From a virus, in IMG/VR virus record IMGVR_UViG_3300037247_000810, positions 39,460 through 103,459 of that record: a DNA stretch of 64,000 nt; one strand, written 5' to 3'. The notes under the pieces were generated by a model. The model had not been told where the DNA came from and made no database searches. It was given only the letters and a program-made list of their open reading frames with translations. Made by a program: the position numbers and the translations under genes. This document shows positions 2,980 through 7,388 of the stretch, piece by piece (the first letter of the stretch is position 1; every line of letters begins with the position of its first letter).

Positions 2980-3010
2980 AACACCGCGCCCCAATTAGAG
3001 GCGCGGTGCT
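2980..3010. terminator. GC-rich hairpin between convergent transcripts; likely end of the tRNA operon
   Basis: CACCGCGCC / GGCGCGGTG stem; U-tract weak. Confidence 0.65.
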
Positions 3011-3240
3011 GATATGTGACGGGTGACTTGGGGGCGGCCGGTGTGGGCAACTCAGACCCGCAAGTCTTCGATTCCTCTCAGACCTTGGCACTTGCTTCCG
3101 GTCTGGATTATTTCAACGCCGCCCGTCCGACGTTAGCCCACGGGATCACACACCTGACCCGTGGGGAAACGCAGTGGCCCGCGCGGGTGCTACCACTGTC
3201 CACGTCTTCGGGCAAGCCCTACTGGTGAACTTACGCAGGC
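3011..3240 (-). ncRNA. unassigned structured RNA (~220 nt) at the 3' end of the operon
   Basis: helices GCCCG/CGGGC, GACGT/ACGTC, CCCACGGG/CCCGTGGG, CAGACC/GGTCTG, GCAAGT/ACTTGC; no credible ORF. Confidence 0.5.
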
Positions 3241-3286
3241 CGGTGCCGGTGGAGGGAGTCGAACCCTCTTCTTACCCTTGACCGGC
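3241..3286 (-). ncRNA. anticodon-less mini-tRNA A (acceptor + T arm)
   Basis: GCCGGT..ACCGGC stem, GAGGG-TTCGACT-CCCTC T arm, short linker, ends ACCG. Confidence 0.7.
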
Positions 3287-3361
3287 TGGAGCCATCGGAG
3301 GGAATCGAACCCTCTCCTGCGGTTTACGAAACCGCTGCACAGCCACTTGTGCTTCGATGGC
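3287..3361 (-). tRNA. tRNA-Thr(CGT)
   Basis: cloverleaf, loop TTCGTAA, encoded CCA. Confidence 0.93.
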
Positions 3362-3447
3362 TGGTAGCCTCGGCGAGAGTCGAACTCGCACGCCGTTTCC
3401 GGCCGGGGCTTCTAAGACCCCTACGTCTACCATTCCGTCACGAGGCT
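3362..3447 (-). tRNA. tRNA-Leu(TAG)
   Basis: loop CTTAGAA, long variable arm; A1 shared with the terminal A of the upstream tRNA. Confidence 0.9.
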
Positions 3448-3522
3448 GGTACACCTGGTAGGAGTCGAACCTACAATCTCTCGGATGTGAACCGAGCGCC
3501 TTAGCCTTTGGGCCACAGGTGC
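3447..3522 (-). tRNA. tRNA-Val(CAC)
   Basis: loop TTCACAT, CCA. Confidence 0.88.
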
Positions 3523-3597
3523 TGGTGCTTCGGGACGGATTTGAACCGCCGACGCCGCGCTCTTCAGGCGCGCGCTCTACCCCTGAGCTACCGAAGC
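3523..3597 (-). tRNA. tRNA-Phe(GAA)
   Basis: loop CTGAAGA, CCA. Confidence 0.95.
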
Positions 3598-3598
3598 G

Positions 3599-3675
3599 TG
3601 GTGGGCAATACAGGACTCGAACCTGTGACCTCTGCGATGTCAACGCAGCGCTCTAGCCTGCTGAGCTAATCACCC
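3599..3675 (-). tRNA. tRNA-Val(GAC)
   Basis: loop TTGACAT, CCA. Confidence 0.95.
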
Positions 3676-3750
3676 TGGAGCGGAAGAAGGGACTCGAACC
3701 CTCGACATTCTCGTTGGCAACGAGACATTCTACCACTGAATTACTTCCGC
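3676..3750 (-). tRNA. tRNA-Gly(GCC)
   Basis: loop TTGCCAA, U73, CCA. Confidence 0.95.
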
Positions 3751-3837
3751 TGGTGTCACCGGCGAGAGTCGAACTCGCACCCCCTTGCGGGGACAAGGCT
3801 CTCAACCTTGCATGTCTACCTGTTCCATCACGGTGAC
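3751..3837 (-). tRNA. tRNA-Leu(GAG)
   Basis: loop TTGAGAG, long variable arm. Confidence 0.93.
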
Positions 3838-3913
3838 TGGTGAACTCGGTAGGAATCGAACCTACGACATCCGACGTATCAGATCGGCGCTCTAACCCCT
3901 GAGCTACGAGTCC
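3838..3913 (-). tRNA. tRNA-Ile(GAT)
   Basis: loop CTGATAC, CCA. Confidence 0.94.
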
Positions 3914-3989
3914 TGGTGACAGCGGGTGGACTTGAACCACCGGCCTTCGCCTTATGAGGGCGCTGCTCTACCAACTGAGCTACGCTGCC
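3914..3989 (-). tRNA. tRNA-Met(CAT), elongator-like (Ile2 not excluded)
   Basis: loop CTCATAA, G1-C72 paired. Confidence 0.88.
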
Positions 3990-4067
3990 TGGTAGCCCCA
4001 GCAGGATTCGAACCTGCGACGTTCCGCTTAAGAGGCGGCTGCTCTGGCCGGACTGAGCTATGGGGCC
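3990..4067 (-). tRNA. tRNA-Lys(CTT)
   Basis: loop CTCTTAA, CCA. Confidence 0.93.
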
Positions 4068-4153
4068 TGGTGCGCAAGGAGGGAATCGAACCCTCAAACC
4101 CTAGTGGGCACACGGTTCTGAGCCGTGCGTGTTTACCGTTTCACCACTCGCGC
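4068..4153 (-). tRNA. tRNA-Leu(CAG)
   Basis: loop CTCAGAA, long variable arm. Confidence 0.93.
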
Positions 4154-4241
4154 TGGTGGGGCAGGTAGGACTCGAACCTACGGAGACCGTTAAGGCCAGC
4201 AGGGTTACAGCCTGCCGCAATTGCCGCTATGCGACTACCCC
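4154..4241 (-). tRNA. tRNA-Tyr(GTA)
   Basis: loop CTGTAAC, long variable arm. Confidence 0.94.
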
Positions 4242-4243
4242 TT

Positions 4244-4317
4244 TGGAGACCCCGGCCGGATTCGAACCGACGATAACCGGGTTGCAGCCGGTTGCCTTAC
4301 CACTTGGCCACGGGGTC
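4244..4317 (-). tRNA. tRNA-Cys(GCA)
   Basis: loop CTGCAAC, U73. Confidence 0.94.
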
Positions 4318-4390
4318 TGGCACACCTGGTAGGAGTCGAACCTACTCTCACGGGTTTGGAGTCCGGTCGGCGCATCCCGCGCTCAGGTGC
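4318..4390 (-). tRNA. tRNA-Trp(CCA), atypical D arm
   Basis: loop CTCCAAA, G73; D arm GCGC-GGGAT-GCGC. Confidence 0.87.
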
Positions 4391-4465
4391 TGGCTGTCGG
4401 ACTAGGATTCGAACCTAGAACTTCCTGATTCAGAGTCAGGCGTCATACCGTTAGACCATCCGACA
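4391..4465 (-). tRNA. tRNA-Gln(CTG)
   Basis: loop CTCTGAA, U1-A72. Confidence 0.94.
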
Positions 4466-4539
4466 TGGATGCGGGAGCAGGAATCGAACCTGCATTCACG
4501 GGTTCAAAGTCCGACGTCCGACCTTTAGACGATCCCGCA
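4466..4539 (-). tRNA. tRNA-Gln(TTG)
   Basis: loop CTTTGAA, U1-A72. Confidence 0.92.
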
Positions 4540-6044: not shown

Positions 6045-6118
6045 TGGAGCGCCTAGCGGGAATCGAACCCGCGAACTCTGCTTGGAAGGCAGATATGTTG
6101 CCCCTACATCACAGGCGC
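6045..6118 (-). tRNA. tRNA-Gly(TCC)
   Basis: loop CTTCCAA, U73. Confidence 0.94.
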
Positions 6119-6193
6119 TGGTACGGGCGGTGGGACTCGAACCCACACCGAACGGTTTAAAAGACCGCTGCTCTGCCTTCGAGCTACACCCGC
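6119..6193 (-). tRNA. tRNA-Lys(TTT)
   Basis: loop CTTTTAA. Confidence 0.92.
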
Positions 6194-6269
6194 TGGTAGC
6201 GTCGACGGGATTCGAACCCGCTCCGTCCGGTTTGAAAGACCGGCGACCTATCCTGTAGTCGACGACGCT
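6194..6269 (-). tRNA. tRNA-Glu(TTC)
   Basis: loop CTTTCAA. Confidence 0.92.
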
Positions 6270-6345
6270 TGGAGCCTTCGGCGAGATTCGAACTCGCTGC
6301 CTCGTTCTTACCAAGAACGCGCTCTACCAATTGAGCTACGAAGGC
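6270..6345 (-). tRNA. tRNA-Thr(GGT)
   Basis: loop TTGGTAA. Confidence 0.94.
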
Positions 6346-6353
6346 TTGTTATC

Positions 6354-6683
6354 GAGCAATCGGGTCGTAAGCCGCTTTCTGTTTCTCTGCCTACATCTCT
6401 CTAGCTGTCACGCGGTCGCTGCCAAACTACCCGCCGCGCCTCCGGCCCCCTAACGCAATCCGTCTTTTCACACGACCTCCGTGTCTCCGGGTCTCGGCAG
6501 GCTCGGTGGCCCGCTACCCGTAGTCGCTGTTCGTGACATCTCGCCGGTCTCTTGCCCGACGGCCCGCCTTATTAGGGACGGGTAGGTTGTTTGGCGGCCG
6601 AGCGGACTTTCCTCAAGGGCCTCGTGGTGCAAACGCCTCGCGGCTCCCACCAGACGATCCTGCGTAGGCACGTCCGATTGCTC
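6354..6683 (-). ncRNA. rnpB: RNase P RNA (divergent, reduced)
   Basis: CR-I GAGGAAAGTCCGCT and CR-V ACAGAAAGCGGCTTA form P4 with a bulged U; P1 GAGCAATCGG/CCGATTGCTC; P2 TGCCTAC/GTAGGCA; CR-IV-like CTAGAGAGATG. Confidence 0.92.
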
Positions 6684-6686
6684 TCT

Positions 6687-6737
6687 TGGCAGCCGGTCGC
6701 GGAATCGAACCGCACGGAGGTCAACCAGACCCCGGCT
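6687..6737 (-). ncRNA. anticodon-less mini-tRNA C (acceptor + mini D arm + T arm + GCCA)
   Basis: AGCCGG/CCGGCT, GGTC-TGGTT-GACC, TGCGG-TTCGATT-CCGCG; directly 5' of the RNase P RNA. Confidence 0.72.
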
Positions 6738-6812
6738 TGGTGCCCTGAGCGGGAATCGAACCCGCATCTGCCGCTTAGGAGGCGGCTGCGCTATCCATTA
6801 CGCCATCAGGGT
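6738..6812 (-). tRNA. tRNA-Arg(CCT)
   Basis: loop CTCCTAA, A20. Confidence 0.92.
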
Positions 6813-6887
6813 TCAATAGGCATCCGTGCCGATGGCCTTCCTGGCCCCAATACCACGGCCCGCCTGAGTTAAGGCACACGGGCCGGA
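6813..6887 (-). ncRNA. unassigned ~75-nt structured RNA
   Basis: CGGCCCG/CGGGCCG, CCT/AGG, possible pseudoknot GTGCC/GGCAC. Confidence 0.4.
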
Positions 6888-6936
6888 CGGTCGACTGCGC
6901 GGGGATTTGACCCCATAGCGCCAAGCGCCGCAGCCG
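6888..6936 (-). ncRNA. anticodon-less mini-tRNA D
   Basis: CGGCTGCG/CGCAGTCG, GCG-CTTGG-CGC, GGGG-TCAAAT-CCCC, ends ACCG. Confidence 0.62.
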
Positions 6937-6937
6937 T

Positions 6938-7007
6938 TGGCACCCTCGGTGGGAGTCGAACCCACGTTTGGCCGCTTAGAAGGCGGCGCATCGTCCCCGA
7001 CGAGGGC
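6938..7007 (-). tRNA. tRNA-Arg(TCT), truncated D arm, 70 nt
   Basis: loop CTTCTAA; only 13 nt between acceptor and anticodon stems. Confidence 0.8.
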
Positions 7008-7083
7008 TGGTGAGCGATGAGGGAGTCGAACCCCCGGCACCCTGGATGTAAGCCAGGTGCTCTGGCCTCTGAGCTAATCGCCC
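7008..7083 (-). tRNA. tRNA-Val(TAC)
   Basis: loop CTTACAT. Confidence 0.94.
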
Positions 7084-7158
7084 TGGTGGAGATGACAGGA
7101 TTCGAACCTGCGACTTTCAGTCTGCCAGACTGACACTCTCCCGCTGAGTTACATCCCC
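7084..7158 (-). tRNA. tRNA-Ala(GGC)
   Basis: loop CTGGCAG, G3:U70. Confidence 0.95.
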
Positions 7159-7234
7159 TGGTGGAGCACGCGGGACTCGAACCCGCAACCTCCTGCGTGC
7201 AAGGCAGGCGCACTCCCAATTGTGCTAGCACCCC
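7159..7234 (-). tRNA. tRNA-Ala(TGC)
   Basis: loop CTTGCAC, G3:U70. Confidence 0.95.
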
Positions 7235-7310
7235 TGGTGGAGACGACAGGACTCGAACCTGCTACCTCGTCGTTGCGAACGACGCACTCTCCCTGCTGAG
7301 CTACGCCCCC
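7235..7310 (-). tRNA. tRNA-Ala(CGC)
   Basis: loop TTCGCAA, G3:U70; first tRNA of the operon. Confidence 0.95.
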
Positions 7311-7320
7311 TAGTCTATTC

Positions 7321-7353
7321 TAGCAAAGAACGGGCCGCCTCTATGGGCGGTCG
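7321..7353 (-). promoter_or_regulatory. rrn-type boxB hairpin plus boxA-like antitermination site
   Basis: CCGCC-CATAGA-GGCGG hairpin then GTTCTTTG, between promoter and first tRNA. Confidence 0.55.
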
Positions 7354-7359
7354 ATCCTC

Positions 7360-7388
7360 AATATACCGGATCGCGGAATACTTGTCAA
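7360..7388 (-). promoter_or_regulatory. near-consensus sigma70 promoter of the tRNA operon
   Basis: TTGACA-N17-TATATT with AT-rich upstream element. Confidence 0.85.

Follow-up and report, generated by a model that had tools for sequence, protein, structure and literature searches.

How can a transcript in which one tRNA begins at the very nucleotide that follows the CCA end of another be resolved into separate tRNAs? The question is raised by a polycistronic tRNA operon found in a 64,000-nucleotide (nt) stretch of phage DNA (hereafter the window), which corresponds to bases 39460-103459 of the 103,459-bp IMG/VR virus record IMGVR_UViG_3300037247_000810 (CheckV completeness 82%). Besides 42 tRNAs, the operon codes for an RNase P RNA and for minihelices, short elements that resemble the acceptor and T arms of a tRNA. 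The best explanation of this organization, as read from the sequence, is probably that the operon is arranged so that RNase P cleavage alone separates its tRNAs.

Organization of the tRNA array

The array is found on the minus strand, from position 7388 to 2973, as a single promoter-to-terminator unit. ARAGORN identified 40 tRNAs between 7310 and 3287, and two weak Rfam tRNA matches, at 4390-4318 (28.4 bits) and 4849-4781 (23.9 bits), add two atypical ones. The atypical units are 69-73 nt long, are kept in relatives and display Trp CCA and Thr UGU anticodon loops, respectively. All 42 tRNAs have an encoded CCA end, in agreement with the original prediction made from the sequence, and all 20 amino acids are represented among them. 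The features of the unit and of its upstream neighbour are listed below, where L012, L018, L019 and L028 are related metagenome loci.

7360-7388, minus strand: sigma-70-type promoter TTGACA-17-TATATT (11/12 matches), with a homologue at the same place in L012
7335-7350, minus strand: leader hairpin between the promoter and the first tRNA; a similar hairpin is found in L012
6938-7310, minus strand: tRNAs Ala-CGC, Ala-UGC, Ala-GGC, Val-UAC and Arg-UCU, CCA-ended and with zero spacers
6738-6812, minus strand: tRNA-Arg(CCU), called by ARAGORN
5664-6345, minus strand: tRNAs Thr-GGU, Glu-UUC, Lys-UUU, Gly-UCC, His, Pro-CGG, Pro-UGG, Glu-CUC and Met-CAU
5502-5578, minus strand: tRNA-Asp, called by ARAGORN
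4952-5368, minus strand: tRNAs Ser-GGA, Ser-CGA, Ser-UGA, Arg-GCG and Arg-UCG
4940-4951, minus strand: 12-nt tandem duplicate of the tRNA-Ser(GCU) start with a CCA-like end, not found in relatives
3287-4939, minus strand: 21 tRNAs from Ser-GCU to Thr-CGU, including Thr-UGU (4849-4781) and Trp-CCA (4390-4318)
2973-3008, minus strand: putative intrinsic terminator with a 9-bp G+C stem and a T-rich tail, kept in L018, L019 and L028
7767-8372, minus strand: open reading frame (ORF) of 201 amino acids (aa) upstream of the tRNA array, with the same placement in related loci

A promoter/terminator scan revealed no second strong minus-strand promoter and no convincing terminator between the two signals that bracket the unit; the hairpin at 3008-2973 was itself left unflagged by the terminator scan. 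No further tRNA was found between positions 7400 and 64000 of the window.

The 42 tRNAs form 41 consecutive pairs, four of which are split by non-tRNA RNA of 85-392 nt and 37 of which are direct. There is no spacer at 33 of the 37 direct junctions, one of them being reported by ARAGORN as a 1-nt overlap that is in truth zero. The layout was thus correctly described in the original prediction, which had counted 32 such junctions. The exceptions are AG before tRNA-His (the G being His G-1), AA before tRNA-Tyr, C before tRNA-Phe and the 12-nt duplicate at 4940-4951, which is the sole sizeable break of zero spacing in the window.

The DNA runs that contain the window sequence are marine sediment and seep metagenomes, and no RNA run with this sequence is listed. 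Relatives were found through the 201-aa ORF, for which 34 homologues were retrieved; an alignment of 18 then led to 31 metagenome loci. The same tRNA array lies downstream of the ORF homologue in nearly every locus reaching far enough. Counted by ARAGORN calls over the window and 30 related metagenome loci, the CCA end is encoded in 329 of 332 tRNAs and the spacer is zero at 227 of 307 consecutive junctions, most gaps of 60-100 nt across the clade being atypical tRNAs overlooked by ARAGORN. The zero-spacer/CCA layout is therefore a trait of the phage lineage. Among 90 tRNAs of the clade arrays that are preceded by non-tRNA sequence, the base at -1 is A in 65 and positions -3 to -1 read CAA or CCA in 45; the cleavage-site context is therefore similar throughout.

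The record carries phage-type replication genes coding for a UDG-exonuclease-PolA fusion, RecA, a gp32-like protein, exonucleases, methyltransferases and a topoisomerase. Since its PolA is at most 28% identical to those of isolated phages, no cultured relative is available, and the INPHARED phage collection gave no match to the array (megablast) or to the ribozyme (blastn). The fragment L011, from the same sample as L012 and with a PolA 85% identical, does not contain the array.

Some units of the related arrays deviate from ordinary tRNAs. L012:8873-8941 is a chimera whose 5' part comes from the atypical tRNA-Thr(UGU) and whose 3' part comes from tRNA-Glu(UUC), joined at the T-loop, a sign that T-arm recombination rearranges the arrays. 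The tRNA-His of L012 (8325-8400) has an apparent U at -1 opposite A73, and that of the window has the usual G-1:C73. Units of 80 nt in two arrays (L028:14324-14403; L035:12785-12864) match both ends of the Rfam tmRNA model with 61 and 58 bits against a cut-off of 47. They look like the tRNA-like domain of tmRNA without the coding part, and none is found in the window. The "tmRNA*" called by ARAGORN at L012 6900-7467 overlaps ordinary tRNAs and is regarded as spurious. Other weak Rfam matches in the array (YrlA, mascRNA, permuted tmRNA and Plastid-ycf2) are sub-threshold and most overlap tRNAs. A YrlA-type Y RNA (RF02553) was rejected, the best scores being 28.7 bits in the window and 32.9 in L012 against a gathering threshold of 69, and most window matches straddle the junction of two adjacent tRNAs.

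The RNase P RNA of the operon

The RNA encoded between tRNA-Arg(CCU) and tRNA-Thr(GGU) aligns with the RNase P RNA family RF00010 over the full length of the model (1-367) at 6681-6352, with a score of 26 bits (E 2e-5). Its position and landmarks are the following.

6354-6683, minus strand: RNase P RNA, compact and type-A-like, 330 nt from P1 to P1, defined by the RF00010 alignment and covariation
6614-6603, minus strand: conserved region CR-I
6595-6589 with 6427-6421, minus strand: helix P6
6431-6429, minus strand: GGU of loop L15
6404-6397, minus strand: conserved region CR-IV
6382-6367, minus strand: conserved region CR-V

The alignment displays GAGGAAAGUCCG, CUAGAGAGAUG and ACAGAAAGCGGCUUAC. 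Conserved regions CR-I (GAGGAAAGUCCG), CR-IV (CUAGAnnnAUG) and CR-V (ACAGAAnnCGGCUUA) are present and are kept in 11 homologues, since a homologous RNA of ~340 nt is found directly upstream of tRNA-Thr(GGU) in 11 of the 11 arrays that reach that site. A type-A structure was written by hand, with P4 and P6 as pseudoknots, and scored on these homologues. Standard pairs occupy 95.9% of 913 cells, a share that drops to 33-43% once the 3' partners are shifted by 1-3 columns. This control favours the structure, which was partly derived from the window sequence; the double changes are independent of that bias. Changes on both sides are found in 33 of the 83 pairs, a value reached in none of 500 shuffles.

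Compensatory pairs occur in each of P1, P2, P3, P4, P5, P6, P7, P8, a P12-like hairpin and P15. Helices P1, P2, P3, P5, P7, P8 and P9 follow each other in type-A order, each 85-100% paired and most with compensatory changes. The long-range helix P4, formed by CR-I and CR-V, has seven pairs that are always formed, two of them with double changes, and an invariant bulged U. P15 has six pairs with four double changes and P6 seven pairs with five. Loop L15 (GCGGGUAG) is invariant across the homologues and includes the GGU with which type-A RNAs pair C74 and C75 of the substrate.

P6 is formed by direct pairing of the P15 loop with J5/7; its 3' strand is thus supplied by the P15 loop itself and P16/P17 are therefore collapsed. 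Neither P16/P17 nor P18 was found in the ribozyme, which has 38 nt where the Rfam model has 81 positions. The region between P9 and P7 is ~23 nt shorter than in the model (85 versus 108); helices P10-P14 were tentatively assigned by hand, and one P12-like hairpin and one additional hairpin were found in the specificity domain, not the full set. A U in J5/15 that would compensate for A at -1 was considered and rejected, the middle A of J5/15 being invariant (GAG in the window).

The presence of an RNase P RNA inside the unit, put forward in the original prediction, is upheld by the covariation of the 11 homologues despite the low RF00010 score. The many compensatory changes, the intact core motifs and the occurrence in 11 of 11 arrays argue that the structure is under purifying selection; in their marker protein these phages are 43-81% identical. 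It is thus strongly supported from sequence comparison that the 6683-6354 RNA is a genuine RNase P RNA of compact type-A form, maintained by selection. Its conservation with covariation across a phage clade bears on both RNase P and phage biology.

The family-invariant motif of the ribozyme had 18 matches in 185,579 species genomes, none of them with another RNase P motif nearby; these matches are thus attributed to chance, and the scan yielded no host or cellular source of the ribozyme. Genes coding for the RNase P protein RnpA (PF00825), a CCA-adding enzyme or an RNase Z-type enzyme were not found in the 82%-complete phage record. The product of the 201-aa ORF (7767-8372) carries conserved Cys and His residues, and its carboxyl terminus is very basic (VPKRLRRRGRNK). 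It was considered as a stand-in for RnpA and set aside: Pfam, PHROGs and the ESM Atlas gave no match, its AlphaFold model is poor (pLDDT 65, pTM 0.42) and Foldseek against the PDB returned nothing at E <0.79.

Minihelices and the RNAs that follow them

Four minihelices (M1, M2, M4 and M5) start at an offset of 0-1 nt after a tRNA CCA. They are listed here with the non-tRNA RNAs of the operon, termed cargoes.

6889-6937, minus strand: M1, with an 8-bp acceptor-like stem, a small hairpin, a T-arm-like hairpin and 3' ACC (minimum free energy fold)
6813-6888, minus strand: cargo A, a variable RNA (0-170 nt in relatives) between M1 and tRNA-Arg(CCU)
6687-6737, minus strand: M2, with a 7-bp acceptor, a small hairpin, a 5-bp T-arm, a UUCGAUU loop and GCCA, directly 5' of the ribozyme
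5579-5663, minus strand: cargo C, a 66-nt stem-closed structure (GCCCUU/AAGGGC, then ACC) with a 14-nt tail, in the window only
5455-5501, minus strand: M4, with 7+5 bp, a UUCGAUU loop and 3' ACA
5369-5454, minus strand: cargo D, an 86-nt hairpin-rich RNA (z-score -2.3 for 5501-5369)
3242-3286, minus strand: M5, with 7+5 bp, a UUCGACU loop and 3' ACC, directly after the last tRNA
3009-3241, minus strand: cargo E, a structured non-coding RNA from M5 to the terminator, with a ~190-nt core shared with L018 and L019

The acceptor stem of M2, M4 and M5 measures 7 bp and is followed by a short linker or hairpin and by a 5-bp T stem with a 7-nt UUCGAnU loop. M1 has an acceptor stem of 8 or 7 bp, a T stem of 4 or 5 bp (8 and 4 bp in the window) and a deviant loop. 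A strict minihelix detector (score >=13) was positive for three of the five window inserts, for 4 of 10,000 shuffles and for none of 434 internal positions. The stack of acceptor and T stems, the T-loop and the N-C-C that follows the acceptor 3' strand in most copies of M1, M2 and M5 are features read by RNase P. Tails in the window are ACC (M1 and M5), GCC(A) (M2) and ACA (M4). In relatives they are mostly A-C-C-N, and mostly ACCA for M2, with ACU, UCC and AGC as exceptions.

The minihelices are conserved in structure and place. M1 is found in at least 14 loci with six distinct, perfectly paired acceptor stems and three distinct T stems. Its conserved internal hairpin reads GCGCUUGGCGC or GCGAAAGC. 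M2 precedes the ribozyme in 10 of 11 arrays and its T stems covary (UGCGG/CCGCA, UGAGG/CCUCA, GCGGG/CCCGC and GGAGG/CCUCC). The one array that lacks it is L035, whose ribozyme lies behind a terminator-like hairpin and a TTGCTT-17-TATACT promoter; a ribozyme that is not transcribed behind a tRNA can thus do without the minihelix. An M5-type minihelix is found after the last tRNA in all five complete arrays (window, L018, L019, L028 and L035) and in L035 it is immediately followed by the terminator. The placement of the minihelices fits a role in punctuation. The claim that such a mimic precedes four of the five non-tRNA RNAs holds for the window and fails for several ORF inserts of relatives that have their own promoters.

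The 3' side of the minihelices is less readily explained. An A/U-rich linker of 0-8 nt follows the CCA of M2 and, speculatively, would suit an RNase E-type cut. A cut by RNase Z 3' of the minihelices found no support. C74 and C75 inhibit RNase Z and most tails keep them, which makes its involvement doubtful, and no RNase Z-like gene is found in the record.

The cargoes are diverse. The 3' hairpin of cargo A (window 6813-6830), just upstream of tRNA-Arg(CCU), is conserved with a loop of approximately A(U/C)GGAU, and equivalents are found in L021, L022, L027, L031, L038 and L043. The core of cargo E is present in three phages (window, L018:7958-8152 and L019:14381-14568) with blocks GGCUAACGUCG, GGGCGGCGUUG, AGCAAGUGC, CAGCCGCC and UCACCC; its first hairpin displays some covariation and it matches no Rfam family. 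ORF cassettes inside arrays (L012:7662-8250; L035:10102-10637) start with a CCA-ended minihelix and a Shine-Dalgarno sequence, the L012 ORF coding for a putative HNH-type homing endonuclease. At the site between tRNA-Asp and tRNA-Ser(GGA), where the window has M4 and cargo D, L035 has a minihelix followed by a 536-nt insert. The window M4 and cargo D may thus be the remnant of an ORF cassette.

Proposed processing of the transcript and comparison with known systems

In the proposed mechanism, the CCA of each tRNA abuts position +1 of the next, so that one cut would generate the 5' end of one tRNA and the CCA-3'OH of the preceding one. Where the CCA is encoded and no spacer follows it, accurate RNase P cleavage at +1 necessarily leaves this end on the upstream tRNA; this part of the original prediction follows from the sequence and from known RNase P chemistry. 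The phage RNA keeps the catalytic core, a specificity domain and the L15 GGU that would pair with the substrate CCA, and most likely acts with host RnpA. Faced with a transcript that offers over 40 cleavage sites and hardly any single-stranded leader, it would add to, or specialize, the RNase P activity of the cell. Where a non-tRNA RNA comes next, the minihelix after the CCA would provide a minimal RNase P substrate, and the end of the upstream tRNA would still be freed. Cleavage probably proceeds from 3' to 5', beginning at the terminal minihelix. Cutting by RNase P at every junction and at the minihelices, as well as catalysis by the phage RNA, are predicted from this arrangement.

Three natural comparisons favour a role in processing: the loss of M2 in L035, the terminal minihelix with its terminator in the same locus, and the ORF cassettes of L012 and L035, which are led by a minihelix, set against inserts with a promoter of their own, which are not. 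The use of the L035 terminal minihelix as an RNase P site that frees the CCA of the last tRNA is plausible. Such a cut would parallel the action of Escherichia coli RNase P on lysT and valU, where the terminator is removed first and processing then goes from 3' to 5' (PMC4176162; review PMC11143913).

Several points weigh against this account. The four window junctions with spacers of 1, 2, 2 and 12 nt would still need exonucleolytic 3' trimming, so that the claim that none is required could hold at the 33 zero-spacer junctions and not at these four. RNase P cannot free the 5' ends of the cargoes or of the ribozyme: either another nuclease acts or the minihelix stays attached. Cargo C has no T-arm and displays a 6-bp acceptor-like closing stem followed by ACC, L012 and L023 keep an M1 that no cargo follows, and several ORF inserts of relatives with their own promoters lack a minihelix (L018 7482-7845, L029 7003-7517). 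The proposal that the mimics preserve the processing logic at every cargo is thus in keeping with the placement of M2 and M5, and is weakened by cargo-less M1, by cargo C and by the 3' side of the minihelices, for which it offers no explanation. Leader positions -8 to -3 are the usual contact of the RNase P protein (PMC11143913); at the junctions they lie paired in the acceptor stem of the upstream tRNA, and efficient cleavage there is assumed. These paired positions may also be the reason why a dedicated ribozyme is carried. Host RnpA would be needed in vivo, as the phage record has no gene for it, an absence that is not proven in a record 82% complete. The Rfam score of the ribozyme is far under the gathering cut-off of 100 bits, which is a detection threshold and not a structural feature. 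The strict one-enzyme claim is accordingly overstated.

A stronger version, in which maturation is self-contained and relies on one ribozyme, is tentatively entertained and seems unlikely. The phage RNA would be adapted to leaderless substrates whose context is the upstream tRNA with A at -1, the 40-mer would be unzipped from its 3' end starting at the terminal minihelix, and the conjugate of minihelix and ribozyme would release itself, possibly in cis.

The minihelices could instead be functional small RNAs, their placement by inserts being secondary and the array still being cut by RNase P. As tRNA mimics, they could titrate or recruit an enzyme that binds tRNA, or a host defence protein directed against tRNAs; they could also serve as stabilizing handles. 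Since M1 is kept without cargo, it is not punctuation alone. It also has a conserved internal hairpin that a processing signal does not need and that is ~100 nt larger in L026 and L029; M1 may thus have a function of its own. Extending this to the minihelices as a whole is improbable. Most M1 and M5 copies end in ACC-N and not in CCA, which makes them poor mimics of a mature tRNA end, their placement is closely tied to borders between tRNA and non-tRNA, and the one loss of M2 coincides with a separate promoter for the ribozyme. Resemblance to YrlA or mascRNA lies far under threshold and falls mostly across junctions of adjacent tRNAs.

Zero spacing might also result from extreme genome compaction, the transcript being processed by host enzymes with no need for the phage RNA, which would be a minor dosage booster, an RnpA decoy or a relic. 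Cleavage of the same sites by host RNase P is to be expected in principle, the record yielded no phage RnpA, arrays rearrange freely through T-loop recombination (L012 8873-8941) and some spacers of 1-12 nt are tolerated. Compaction alone accounts neither for dedicated minihelices, each of which costs 45-50 nt, nor for a ribozyme kept in every one of the 11 arrays with an intact core and compensatory changes among phages whose marker protein is 43-81% identical, and it is held to be quite improbable. An artefact of metagenome assembly or annotation, for instance false zero-spacer joins created by collapse of repetitive tRNA T-arms, is hardly credible given that the same architecture occurs with diverged sequence in over 20 contigs that were assembled independently and stem from several sequencing projects.

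RNase P cleavage of a leaderless array, the preferred reading, addresses a question described as open in a 2024 review, namely how RNase P handles dimeric and multimeric pre-tRNAs (PMC11143913). The operon is a natural extreme case, with 42 leaderless substrates and natural minihelix substrates, and it brings its own matched ribozyme, which makes the question directly testable in vitro. Since the ribozyme scores far below the Rfam cut-off, its class is invisible to standard annotation. Zero-spacer tRNAs with minihelix punctuation also provide a ready design for multiplexed RNA expression cassettes. Full-text searches of ~8.4 million papers and preprints, a set that excludes most subscription journals, turned up neither an RNase P RNA encoded by a phage or other virus nor a CCA array that combines zero spacers with minihelix punctuation.

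A pattern scan of IMG/VR identified compact RF00010 matches of 64-215 bits in eight other viral contigs (L003-L010), some of which may be host DNA at prophage ends. Five of these RNase P RNAs adjoin tRNAs and one is near a tmRNA; none is preceded by a minihelix. L005 has 25 tRNAs, none CCA-ended and all with spacers of at least 3 nt, and the 6 tRNAs of L009 are not CCA-ended either. The zero-spacer/CCA layout is thus not general to phages with an RNase P RNA.

The phage ribozyme shares with type-A RNase P RNAs (rnpB, E. coli M1 RNA) helices P1-P5 and P7-P9, P4 with its bulged U, CR-I, CR-IV and CR-V, the P6 pseudoknot and the P15 GGU. It differs from them in being phage-encoded inside a tRNA operon, in its length of 330 nt, in the collapsed P16/P17 and in that P18 was not found. 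In yeast mitochondria the RNase P RNA gene is co-transcribed between tRNAs (fMet-RPM1-Pro) (PMC3797045) and, as would be the case in the phage, the ends of the RNase P RNA are set by flanking tRNA-like units. The yeast case is found in an organelle, has full tRNAs on both sides instead of a minihelix and lacks a zero-spacer array. The t-elements of plant mitochondria are non-decoding tRNA-like structures that mark the ends of other RNAs for cleavage by RNase P/RNase Z (PMC1920247). The phage minihelices are likewise non-decoding tRNA-like elements that border another RNA, as in tRNA punctuation. Unlike t-elements, they lie 5' of the cargo, appear to serve the 3' end of the upstream tRNA and belong to a phage of bacteria.

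Some polycistronic tRNAs of E. coli (valV-valW, lysT, valU) are separated by RNase P with no need for RNase E (PMC4176162, PMC2190699; review PMC11143913). Spacers are 2-209 nt between E. coli tRNAs, so that exonucleases must finish the 3' ends, and <5 nt in the dimeric precursors of phage T4 (PMC11143913). The T4 Pro-Ser precursor has no encoded CCA, and neither E. coli nor T4 has a ribozyme gene in these operons.

Acceptor/T-arm minihelices were reportedly introduced as model substrates of RNase P by McClain, Guerrier-Takada and Altman in 1987. Such substrates, shown in Fig. 1 of PMC11143913, resemble the phage elements in their 12-bp coaxial acceptor/T stack and their T-loop; their 3' RCC(A) recurs in many of the phage copies and not in all. 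The models are laboratory constructs, whereas the phage minihelices are natural, conserved and found at defined places of an operon. The elements combined here, a type-A RNase P RNA and tRNA punctuation, are thus of known kinds in a new setting.

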